64,000 nucleotides of DNA from an uncultured Bacillales bacterium (lineage in GTDB: Bacteria; Bacillota_I; Bacilli_A; RFN20; CAG-449): NCBI GenBank assembly GCA_945929875.1, contig CAMEOO010000002.1, positions 65,813 to 129,812 of the forward strand. The letters are read 5' to 3'. The first letter of the stretch is position 1, and every line of letters starts with the position of its first letter. Below, in pieces: positions 54,217-59,077 of this stretch. The notes below the pieces were generated by a model, which worked only from the letters and a program-made list of their open reading frames with translations, was not told where the DNA came from and made no database searches. The position numbers were made by a program, and so were the translations under genes.

Positions 54217-54771
54217 ATGAAGAAAAATTTAAAATTTTTATCTTTAGTAAGTTTATTTACATTATCTCTTTCTTCTTGTGGAGGAAGTAAACTTGATTCG
54301 TTTAAGAAAAAAATTGATAGTTCGATTAAAAATGTCGTTCAAGTAATTATGAATACCACGATTAAAGATGGAGAACTAGAAGTATATAAGAGAGAAAAAA
54401 ACATCGATCTTATTTATGAAGGAAAGAATGTTTCTGGAGTAATCAACATTACTGAATATAATCTATCAACTAATTTTACTTATGTAGAAAGTAAATCGAG
54501 TGATACTTTTGAAGGAAGTATTAAAGATCTTAAATTTGGATTAGATTTAAAAGAGAAATATTTTACTGATTATACAATTGAAGAATCCACTTTAAGTGGA
54601 ACTATAAGAAAAGATTTAGTTTCCTCTTTCTTCCAAATAGAAGAGTTAAATTGCGAAGCGGACCCTTCAATTGAAATCTCTTTAGAGGAAAATAAGATTT
54701 CTTCTTACACTTGCACATATCTAACAAATAATAATAAAAATGTATTTATCGATATTACTTATTTGTATTAA
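54217..54771 (+). CDS. small lipoprotein (184 aa), unknown function, translationally coupled to the giant protease gene
   Basis: Lipobox LSSC. AGGAGG RBS lies inside the 12-nt gap after the 46750-54204 stop. Confidence 0.7.
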   Translation: MKKNLKFLSLVSLFTLSLSSCGGSKLDSFKKKIDSSIKNVVQVIMNTTIKDGELEVYKREKNIDLIYEGKNVSGVINITEYNLSTNFTYVESKSSDTFEGSIKDLKFGLDLKEKYFTDYTIEESTLSGTIRKDLVSSFFQIEELNCEADPSIEISLEENKISSYTCTYLTNNNKNVFIDITYLY

Positions 54772-54933
54772 CAAATAAACTAAATGTAATAAGACATATT
54801 TATAAATTTTAAAATGTATAGGCTTTCATAACTTTTACTTTGCATAAAATATTTATTTTCGTTGATTAAAATAAATTGAAAAATTAATATAATATATAAT
54901 TTGTAAGTTTTGAAGGCTAGAAAGGAAAACAAA

Positions 54934-56880: not shown

Positions 56881-56908
56881 ATATTTGCAAAAATAGGAGG
56901 AATAAATA

Positions 56909-59077
56909 ATGAAAGCAAAAAAATTATTAATTGTTAGCACATTAACTTTAATGCTTTGCGCTTGTGGAAAAACCAATGGCGCTAGTAGCATTACTACTTC
57001 AAGTGATTCAAATAGTTCTATTACTTCTAGTGAATCTACTAGCTCAGATATTACTACAAGTAGTAATATTTCTAGCGAAACTGAGTCTTCTTCTGAGTTA
57101 AGTCAAGTAGAAGATCCTTCTTCAGTTTCAGTAACTCAAGGTCAAGTTGGTAATCTTACTAGCGCGATGATTGAAAAAATCGCTAATAGTTCAATTACTG
57201 TAAATGGTACTTTAACTGATTACTATGTTGATGGTGATACTGATACCATGTATGAAGATACATACAAAATGAAAGTCGAAATGGCTGAAGGAGCTTGGGC
57301 TGGATCATTTTGGATCGAAGGAAAAGAAGATAATATAACAACCGATAATTACCGTAAGGGTGAAGTTGTTAACGATGGAAAGAAACAAGGAGCAGCTTTT
57401 GATCGAGTCTATATCAATAAAGATAACAAGGCAACAGCTGAACATGAAACTCTCTATGATGGAACACCACTATTCTGGGCGGATAATCACTTATGGAATC
57501 ACCTTGGACAATTAGATGTCAATAAGTTTGAAAAAGATGTCGATTGCTACACCTATAATATTGACCCAGCATCAACTACCGATTACTCTCAAGATCAATA
57601 TTTAATGACATATTTAGGTATTTCATTAACTCCTTTATATCAAACTTCCGATGGCTTAATCGATACTTTCAATGTTTATTGCAACGACACTGAAATTACA
57701 AAAATTGAAATGTTCACCGAAGCGACAGTTCTTTCTACTGATAGCCAAGGTAATCCAGTCGATCAATCTTGGATCTGTATGACTTTGACTTTCAGCGATA
57801 TTGGAAAAACCGCTGCACCTACTCCTACTCCTTATGAAGCGGGTAGAAATAATGACAAATTAAAAGCTGCTTTGACAAAGATGAAGGGTATTAAGAATTA
57901 CACATTCCATGCAGTAGATACCACAACCTCTGCACCTTCTTCTGATGGTGGCGACTATGAATTAGGCGCTAATAATTCATCAATTAAAGCAAGAAAGCAC
58001 AATAAAGTTCAAAACTTTACAAATAACACTGGTACAGTTGGAAGACTTGGTAAAGTAACCAAAGATGCTATTTTATATGCAGATACAGGAAAATATTCTT
58101 ATGGTATGGATGATAAATTATATCACACATCATATTCTGGCTTAAAACAAAATTCAGATAATACTTATGAAGAATTTGCCTATAGCAAAGCAGAAAAAAC
58201 ATTAGTTGGACAAAGAAAATATATTGGAAATATGTTTGATAAAATGCCTTCATTTGATTTTGCTCCTGAAATCTTTGAATATGGTGGATCTAACGAAGAC
58301 GCTAATGGTAATGTCTTGTATAAATTCACACTAAGAGATTCTACTATTGCTTATCAAGTAGCTCCTGAAATTTCTTCTCATACAAATGCTGAGGATGCAA
58401 CTAGTTCAGTAAATTCTAAATTTACAATCTACGTCGATAACCAAGGCAACTTTGTTAAAACATCATTCCCTTACAGCTTAGTTTCTGGAACATACTTAGG
58501 AATTGTCGAAACTACTTATTCTGATATTAATTCTACAACTTTAGATGCTGATTTATTTGATGGTTATATTCCTAGAACTGTCGCTACAAATTGGTCAGAT
58601 TATGGAACTATGGATTTCTATGAAACTGGTTCAACTAATAGTAAAGTTACAAAGAGAGTCACAGAAGTTCTTGATTATATGTATGGCGATGAAGTGGCTA
58701 ATTTCATTACTCCTAAAGATATCACTGATGTATTTGGCGATGGAATCTCTGGCCCATGGCACGATAAAAACCACAAGAGAGACGAAAATAATGAATATAT
58801 TGAAGGAGAATACTACGACGAATTCTCATTCAATCTTGAAAGTGTCAATCTAGATAAAAACAATAGAATCACCGACTGGAGAGATTTAATGGATAAAATG
58901 GGAACAATTTTAGGCGCTAAAGGATATGTAAGATCCGCGGCAAATTGCAAAGATACATTAAATTCTAAATTTGAAACATTTGTCAATGGCAGTATTATGG
59001 TCGTCTTTGAAAATATTGGTTACAAGACAATTTATGTCTATTGCTATGTTACAGGTAACTGGACATTAAATAGATAA
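56909..59077 (+). CDS. lipoprotein (722 aa) with Ser-rich linker, paralog of the previous gene, unknown function
   Basis: Lipobox LCAC. RBS AGGAGG. Shares colinear motifs with the 54934 gene (LTxxM, KMxxxxxY, SFxFAPEI, IYVY near the C-terminus). Confidence 0.75.
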   Translation: MKAKKLLIVSTLTLMLCACGKTNGASSITTSSDSNSSITSSESTSSDITTSSNISSETESSSELSQVEDPSSVSVTQGQVGNLTSAMIEKIANSSITVNGTLTDYYVDGDTDTMYEDTYKMKVEMAEGAWAGSFWIEGKEDNITTDNYRKGEVVNDGKKQGAAFDRVYINKDNKATAEHETLYDGTPLFWADNHLWNHLGQLDVNKFEKDVDCYTYNIDPASTTDYSQDQYLMTYLGISLTPLYQTSDGLIDTFNVYCNDTEITKIEMFTEATVLSTDSQGNPVDQSWICMTLTFSDIGKTAAPTPTPYEAGRNNDKLKAALTKMKGIKNYTFHAVDTTTSAPSSDGGDYELGANNSSIKARKHNKVQNFTNNTGTVGRLGKVTKDAILYADTGKYSYGMDDKLYHTSYSGLKQNSDNTYEEFAYSKAEKTLVGQRKYIGNMFDKMPSFDFAPEIFEYGGSNEDANGNVLYKFTLRDSTIAYQVAPEISSHTNAEDATSSVNSKFTIYVDNQGNFVKTSFPYSLVSGTYLGIVETTYSDINSTTLDADLFDGYIPRTVATNWSDYGTMDFYETGSTNSKVTKRVTEVLDYMYGDEVANFITPKDITDVFGDGISGPWHDKNHKRDENNEYIEGEYYDEFSFNLESVNLDKNNRITDWRDLMDKMGTILGAKGYVRSAANCKDTLNSKFETFVNGSIMVVFENIGYKTIYVYCYVTGNWTLNR

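Follow-up and report, generated by a model that had tools for sequence, protein, structure and literature searches.

The 64,000-nucleotide stretch of DNA analysed here (hereafter the window) comes from an uncultured Bacillales bacterium (contig CAMEOO010000002.1 of assembly GCA_945929875.1, positions 65,813 to 129,812) and carries, towards its end, three lipoprotein genes that follow the gene of a giant protease. The three open reading frames are co-oriented on the forward strand: lp184 (54217-54771, 184 aa), lp648 (54934-56880, 648 aa counted from the ATG) and lp722 (56909-59077, 722 aa). Each product has a lipoprotein signal peptide at its N-terminus, with the lipoboxes LSLSSC, LLITSC and LMLCAC, respectively. 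The protease, S8LRR (46750..54204, forward strand, 2484 aa), is lipid-anchored, combines S8, PA, fn3_5, Big_2 and LRR_5 domains (Pfam) with a C-terminal transmembrane helix, and contains in its sequence the catalytic Asp, His and Ser motifs AILDSGFD, HGTHVAG and GTSMASP. We find that the three lipoprotein genes form one heritable block with the protease, and nearly always also with the Opp importer. lp648 and lp722 are members of two families, referred to here as famA and famB.

The paralog pair and the predicted folds

A reading of this DNA from its sequence alone had described lp648 and lp722 as a paralog pair of low identity with four colinear motif pairs, and had named two outcomes that would speak against its proposals: motifs that are not significant on alignment, and homologs scattered away from protease genes. 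Both were tested and neither occurred. BLASTP aligns the two proteins over ~640 residues with 23% identity (E 1e-10). When every open reading frame of the genome was searched with phmmer, each paralog retrieved only its partner (E about 1e-8); no further famA or famB paralogs were found in this genome, which holds two copies only. Homologs were then gathered (267 matches for lp648 and 71 for lp722) and 40 of each were aligned; hhalign of the two 40-sequence family alignments gave a probability of 100 and an E of 1.1e-45 over 637 columns, and all four motif pairs (e.g., LTQEML/LTSAMI and LLIYVYRT/TIYVYCYV) fall in columns aligned there. Taken domain by domain, the two families match with E 5e-13 for domain 1, 6e-18 for domain 2 and 3e-9 for domain 3, and each domain pairs exclusively with its own counterpart, which indicates that the whole gene was duplicated. 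On these alignments, lp648 and lp722 are genuine ancient paralogs, with a similarity far above chance. The duplication is old: famA and famB, colinear in homology over three domains, lie side by side, with famB directly downstream of famA, in 74 of 74 testable loci of the species survey described below.

Both paralogs follow the same plan. In lp648, the signal peptide and lipobox (54934..54993, forward strand, like all features given here for the window) end in a Cys that is kept in 96% of family members. A Ser-rich tether comes next (aa 21-68, 54994..55137), with 48% Ser and a predicted local distance difference test score (pLDDT) below 50; in lp722 the corresponding stretch (aa 20-76, 56966-57136) has 40% Ser. 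These tethers, already noticed in the sequence-only reading, thus span 48-57 residues with 40-48% Ser and are disordered according to the model. Most famA orthologs carry instead an immunoglobulin (Ig)-like stalk (Big_2, I-set or Flg_new) where lp648 has its Ser-rich tether. Beyond the tether, lp648 is divided into domain 1 (aa ~70-262, 55141..55719), domain 2 (aa ~270-492, 55741..56409) and domain 3 (aa ~498-648, 56425..56877). The last of these is a C-terminal alpha/beta domain with an invariant YDVPL motif, and lp722 shares the three-domain plan.

The columns conserved in both paralogs are mostly aromatic, Gly and Pro, with two Asn, one Arg and two Asp in addition. No Ser/His/Cys set is found among these shared columns, which weakly disfavours the two families being enzymes. 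Within domain 2, a famA loop with the motif GVGNDINLYGIFA (aa 418-435) is strongly conserved in spite of its low model confidence, and we regard it as a candidate interaction site.

None of the three proteins has a core that matches Pfam or NCBIfam above cut-off. Likewise, in a Pfam scan of all 122 aligned family members the core remained unmatched and only the N-terminal Ig-like stalks of the orthologs were recognised; LolA, LolB, LppX_LprAFG, MucB_RseB and DUF4367 were absent from the matches listed for these members at E <= 0.1 to 1, and a sequence search of the PDB with the three proteins gave zero matches. At the sequence level, lp184, famA and famB therefore stand as three families unnamed in databases, two of them paralogous.

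Predicted structure tells more. We modelled lp184 and lp648 as monomers with AlphaFold2. The lp648 model (mean pLDDT 82, and above 90 across most of residues 66-648) shows two consecutive modules of a helix plus a curved sheet (domains 1 and 2), followed by the alpha/beta domain. Foldseek against the PDB returned LolA, LppX, LprG, LprF, RseB, VioE and BFA1 with probabilities of 0.93-1.0, E of 1e-5 to 1e-3 and template-modelling scores of 0.26-0.48 on the target. The lp184 model (pLDDT 88.7, pTM 0.80) is a single half-barrel, an N-terminal helix followed by 11 strands; its best match is LprG (3mh8, E 4e-6, probability 1.0), and the S. aureus lipoprotein SAOUHSC_02783 was also retrieved. Across the two models, the top matches (LprG, LppX, LolA, RseB, VioE and BFA1) have probabilities of 0.97-1.0, E of 4e-6 to 1e-3 and template-modelling scores of 0.38-0.48, the probability reaching 1.0 for LprG, LppX, LolA, RseB and BFA1. 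As modelled, both lp184 and lp648 have the half-barrel with an N-terminal helix or helical lid that characterises LolA-like proteins. Since lp184 appears as one such module and lp648 as two, all three proteins are, by prediction, built from half-barrel modules of the LolA/LprG type, held on stalks away from the membrane. The earlier statement that no known family could be recognised thus stands for sequence (Pfam, NCBIfam, PDB) but not for fold, and it was the suggested Foldseek comparison of AlphaFold models that revealed the half-barrels. By hhalign, no two of lp184, domain 1 and domain 2 are related in sequence (E > 0.03, probability < 2%), and an internal duplication of half-barrels was accordingly rejected. 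Their common fold may be very old or convergent.

A conserved block of protease, lipoprotein and opp genes

We scanned one genome per GTDB species and scored the resulting 80 loci with hidden Markov models built from the window and three orthologous sets. The block runs in the order Flg_new lipoprotein, oppA, oppB, oppC, oppD, oppF, a small transmembrane protein, the protease with S8, PA and leucine-rich repeat (LRR) regions, lp184 (where present), famA, famB, a Big_3 giant and a Flg_new giant, and the same gene order surrounds three distant homologs on long metagenome contigs. The protease stands directly upstream in all testable loci (76/76), the Big_3 giant comes after famB in 70 of 71, and oppF together with the small transmembrane protein lies upstream in 60 of 61. 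Co-occurrence with S8-LRR genes, a check put forward in the sequence-only reading, therefore holds strictly in one direction, famA being never found apart from the protease, but more weakly in reverse, as proteases without famA and famB exist.

Spacing is tight throughout. The median gap is 12 nt between protease and lp184 (interquartile range 10-15, 51 species), 10 nt between lp184 and famA, 29 nt between famA and famB and 28 nt between famB and the Big_3 gene; in loci without lp184, the stop of the protease overlaps the start of famA by 4 nt. Conservation is graded along the block, with median identities to the window proteins of 51% for the protease, 43% for famA, 38% for famB, 32% for the Big_3 giant and about 25% for the positional orthologs of lp184, the fastest-evolving gene of the block. 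Protease orthologs have ~2500 aa, and in 30 loci the 51% identity extends over the full length. The S8 core is 67-77% identical, and the BspA-type LRR region is kept at 44% across classes; such conservation of the stalk suggests that it faces constant partners and not variable ligands of a host.

All hosts of the 80 loci are metagenome-assembled genomes (MAGs), labelled Bacilli, Mollicutes or Acholeplasmatales on the one hand and Clostridia, Christensenellaceae or Eubacteriales on the other. They are uncultured gut bacteria, and none of the loci comes from a cultured organism. The famA core family is narrow; of 1.84 billion representatives searched, it accounts for ~60 clusters at 50% identity. 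The 3165 library matches overstate its size because the profile included the N-terminal Ig-like stalk; among the matches listed, the non-core ones cover only profile positions ~40-215, which correspond to this stalk. Its distribution is also patchy. Of 399 genomes sampled from the phylum, 7 have famA (five of them as full-length matches). Within the window's genus the cluster was found in 4 of 15 species, and the 16 genomes sampled from the remaining four genera of the family all lack it. A different family of that class and MAGs labelled Clostridia carry it commonly. Such a pattern suggests horizontal transfer or frequent loss. A literature search found no paper on it.

The small lipoprotein lp184 deserves separate mention. 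At the protein level it is always membrane-tethered; most species use a lipobox, and about a quarter an uncleaved transmembrane helix. In the window, the protease gene ends with TAG at 54202-54204 and the lp184 ATG lies at 54217, leaving a gap of 12 nt; the ribosome-binding site and its spacer occupy 54203..54216, with AGGAGGA at 54203-54209 overlapping the TAG. This arrangement, which the sequence-only reading had taken as translational coupling and as a hint of a partnership with the protease, was found as described.

A second cluster type extends the association of lp184 with proteases. We fetched seven protease loci that lack famA (L088-L094, from genomes G140, G253, G208, G193, G261, G382 and G350, respectively), in which a ~2500-aa S8-LRR protease occurs without famA, famB or the Big_3 giant. 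An lp184-like protein follows the protease directly in five of the seven (E 6e-27 to 4e-7). The opp genes lie downstream in four of the seven, and three of the five loci with an lp184-like gene have opp next. Two loci contain fusions, placed between the S8-LRR protease and oppA (L091:10588-12354 and L093:4740-6443, both on the minus strand). The fusion proteins are lipoproteins of 567-588 aa whose N-terminal module is lp184-like (BLASTP against the window's lp184, E about 1e-11), and whose remainder shares 40-44% identity with the ~390-aa Flg_new lipoprotein normally encoded just upstream of oppA. Through its fusion with an Opp-associated lipoprotein, lp184 is connected with the Opp system as well as with the protease. 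The partnership with the protease has thus gained ground on three counts: a 12-nt spacing that equals the median of 51 species, its position behind proteases without famA and famB, and these fusions.

Some features of the second cluster type stand on their own. Genome G382 has both cluster types on one 45-kb contig; one of the two fusions lies on it, and the type-1 cluster there (L046) is without its own lp184. In G261 (L092), the gene after the S8-LRR protease encodes a 495-aa Ser-tethered lipoprotein; we considered it as a remote relative of famA and famB, and the match was not significant (probability 3-10%). After it comes a 456-aa lipoprotein (L092:9704-11074, minus strand), unmatched in Pfam, with a HEMAH motif resembling that of zinc metalloproteases.

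The window's own lineage departs from the common pattern in several respects. Its clade forms a long branch in the famA tree, Ser-rich linkers take the place of the Ig stalks in both paralogs, and the gap between lp184 and famA is 162 nt versus ~10 nt elsewhere. This AT-rich spacer (54772..54933) contains a promoter-like TTAAAA-16-TATAAT at 54866-54893, which may be a lineage-specific internal promoter. An alternative TTG start at 54910 would extend lp648 by 8 residues to 656 aa; orthologs begin at MKK. The opp genes of this genome are found on contig C11 (4028-12638), which encodes the ~390-aa Flg_new Opp-associated lipoprotein (4028-5221), an 864-aa OppA, OppB, OppC, OppD, OppF and a 77-aa small transmembrane protein. 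This last protein remained with opp on C11, away from the protease.

In the window, the protease block begins downstream of hydrogenase genes, the protease gene being parted from hydA by a terminator-like hairpin (46635-46654). No terminator-like site was flagged by our scan inside the protease-to-Big_3 block. An inverted repeat between lp722 and the Big_3 giant (AAAAGTCTAGA / TCTAGACTTTT, 59101..59133) has a perfect 11-bp stem, an 11-nt loop and a TTTT end; it was not flagged by the scan of the window, probably because its loop exceeds 8 nt, and may be a weak terminator or attenuator setting the ratio of giant protein to lipoproteins. The Big_3 giant lipoprotein itself (2294 aa), the next conserved member of the cluster, starts at 59158 and occupies the window up to 64000.

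The host genome is a 1.5-Mb MAG with ~30% GC and about 60 predicted lipoproteins. It encodes three penicillin-binding proteins with transpeptidase domains and, on C11, SpoVAC and SpoVAEb; no sortase was found in it. Its gene content thus points to a bacterium with a cell wall and probably the capacity to form spores, in which lipid or transmembrane anchors and long stalks display the surface proteins.

Proposed role and competing explanations

We propose that the three lipoproteins are non-catalytic accessory subunits of a surface apparatus for proteolysis and peptide uptake built around the protease, a reading that we consider, on balance, somewhat probable. It rests on synteny, tight gene spacing, the ties of lp184 to proteases of both cluster types, families specific to the block, parallel graded conservation, the predicted folds with their probable lack of catalysis, membrane tethering and the precedents of dentilisin and GerS. 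By analogy with PrcB and PrtP, or with GerS and the amidase CwlD, lp184 would bind the protease and/or the Opp-associated lipoprotein and serve as a stabiliser, activator or adaptor. famA and famB would work together, neither replacing the other and probably as a heterodimer, and might provide a scaffold for the complex on the conserved LRR stalk; alternatively, their half-barrel cavities could catch substrate or hydrophobic peptides near the protease and the long OppA.

A more far-reaching form of this proposal, which we hold to be rather improbable, is a multi-subunit surface machine in which LolA-like lipoproteins serve sortase-less gut Firmicutes as peptide or substrate relays. In such a machine, docking of the LRR protease to the Opp-associated lipoprotein would fall to lp184, and the famA/famB heterodimer, with its four half-barrels, would catch hydrophobic cleavage products and hand them to the unusually long OppA. 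If true, nutrient channelling across the Gram-positive wall would be a new job for the LolA fold.

Several observations weigh against the proposal of accessory subunits. S8-LRR proteases occur without famA and famB: orthologs of ~2500 aa were found in 13 of 400 sampled genomes, using the conserved middle part of the protease as the query (a fourteenth match was weak and partial), and famA is present in 5 of these 13. The protease as such therefore does not depend on the paralogs for its function. About 25 of the 76 loci have no lp184; these loci fall in at least four separate clades, and mapping the absences onto the famA tree requires at least four changes. We searched the loci without lp184 for a fused copy (hmmsearch --max), for an insertion or deletion in S8LRR that tracks the loss and, in one lp184-less lineage, for an lp184-like gene downstream of the cluster, and found none of these. 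It follows that the protease can probably work without lp184, which is unlikely to be an obligatory maturase. In the window's lineage the block is parted from opp, which lies on another contig. The fold matches come from predicted models and are moderate, with template-modelling scores of 0.38-0.48 and E of 1e-6 to 1e-3, and no sequence relationship to PrcB, PrcA or GerS was found. Finally, the best-known LolA-like proteins are lipid carriers, suggesting a different role.

That last point leads to the explanation that lp184, famA and famB carry lipids or other hydrophobic ligands in the manner of LprG, LppX and LolA, the half-barrels holding acyl chains. Such ligands might include scavenged lipids, glycolipids or the anchors of the giant lipoproteins next door, which would be moved or presented across the wall; the protease would then be linked to these carriers through envelope assembly or nutrient scavenging, not through proteolysis. 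In keeping with such a function, the best structural matches include LprG (also in its phosphatidylinositol mannoside-bound form), LppX and LolA-lipoprotein complexes, every protein of the block is a lipoprotein, and the genome has no sortase. However, the LolA-like fold is also purely protein-binding in GerS, RseB and BFA1, the three genes are strictly linked with those of a protease and a peptide importer and not with lipid metabolism genes, and the anchor of lp184 is a plain transmembrane helix in about a quarter of species; we regard carriers as unlikely. The same low likelihood applies, in our view, to a reading of the whole block as a colonisation or particle-attachment island, in which the paralogs would be adhesins or surface-layer parts, i.e., ligand-binding heads on stalks. 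Giant Ig-like, Flg_new and BspA-type LRR proteins are encoded nearby, orthologs bear Ig-like stalks and the hosts live in the gut, all of which an adhesin island would explain. Nevertheless, famA and famB are 38-43% identical across classes with many invariant residues, which is unusual for host-facing adhesins, and the near-universal adjacency of opp speaks for nutrition.

The sequence-only reading had also offered a PrtM-like maturase as a model for lp184, and a dedicated foldase, maturase or inhibitor, needed to activate the protease or to keep it inactive, would indeed account for the translational coupling with its conserved 12-nt spacing and for the presence of lp184 behind S8-LRR proteases in two distinct cluster types. 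Moreover, no parvulin-type domain was found above cut-off genome-wide; the sole match was sub-threshold and lies outside the cluster (C12:17289-17534). Yet lp184 carries no signature of a peptidyl-prolyl isomerase, I9 or inhibitor family, its predicted fold is LolA/LprG-like, it is the fastest-evolving gene in the block, and it was lost repeatedly while the protease stayed intact and conserved. lp184 is therefore not PrtM-like, and a strict role as foldase, maturase or inhibitor appears to us, given the repeated loss, very unlikely.

An accessory-subunit role, as proposed here, would be of interest for the ecology of the hosts. These belong to widespread gut lineages, namely RF39-like and other small-genome Bacilli and Christensenellales-like Clostridia, whose feeding is known from gene inventories only. 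The block is among their largest and best conserved surface loci, and three of its genes fall in families that databases do not name. LolA-fold modules tied to an S8 protease, and mostly also to Opp, provide a concrete model of how such bacteria might acquire peptides.

Comparison with known surface systems

Protease-lipoprotein surface complexes and LolA-fold lipoproteins are already known; the conserved locus itself is unstudied. With LolA, LolB, LppX, LprG, RseB and GerS, our proteins share the predicted N-terminal helix followed by a curved antiparallel sheet, and LprG, LppX and GerS are lipoproteins, as are lp184, lp648 and lp722. In contrast to this superfamily, they have no detectable sequence homology to the Pfam members of the clan, and the tandem of two barrels and an alpha/beta domain on a stalk is found in no listed structure. 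The genomic partners differ as well, being here a protease and Opp instead of genes for lipoprotein sorting, envelope stress or germination. GerS of Clostridioides difficile, a LolA-like lipoprotein, acts as the allosteric activator of a hydrolase (10.1101/2025.01.13.632879). If our proposal is true, the block would be another case, after GerS, in which the LolA fold is used beyond lipoprotein sorting.

The lactococcal PrtP (lactocepin) system resembles the block in the S8, PA and fn3_5 core of its protease and in the lipoprotein gene that adjoins the protease gene. Opp is linked to both, functionally there and physically here (60 of 61 species). PrtM is a parvulin foldase of the PrsA type. 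lp184 has a lipobox and is encoded next to the protease, although a requirement for it is unlikely given its absence from about 25 of 76 loci. None of lp184, lp648 and lp722 has a parvulin domain or fold. Membership of PrtM/PrsA was rejected, with Rotamase, Rotamase_2 and Rotamase_3 unmatched in all three proteins (Pfam, NCBIfam); the sole PrsA signal (E 0.038) covers only the signal peptide of lp722. The systems differ further in anchoring, by LPXTG and sortase in lactococci versus lipid and transmembrane helix here, and lactococci have no counterpart of the LRR_5 stalk or of the famA, famB, Big_3 and Flg_new genes.

The nearest analogue is, in our opinion, the PrcB-PrcA-PrtP system of dentilisin. 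In Treponema denticola, this acylated S8 protease forms an equimolar surface complex with two lipoproteins encoded in one operon, PrcB (23 kDa), which is bound and needed by the protease, and PrcA (70 kDa) (PMC8167434). lp184 as a homolog of PrcB was rejected: PrcB_C (PF14343) is absent genome-wide at E <= 1, lp184 included, and it does not appear among the matches listed (25 most-matched families) for 42 lp184 members. The gene order is reversed, the protease coming first here, and the hosts are a spirochete there and a monoderm, sortase-less Firmicute here. The protease of our block, with 2484 aa, an LRR stalk and its own C-terminal transmembrane anchor, has two large paralogs beside it versus a single PrcA, and its complex is a proposed one. 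Nonetheless, the sizes estimated from protein lengths are alike, with about 18 kDa for mature lp184 and about 70 and 78 kDa for the paralogs. If the proposed role is true, the block would represent a Gram-positive counterpart of the spirochete dentilisin complex.

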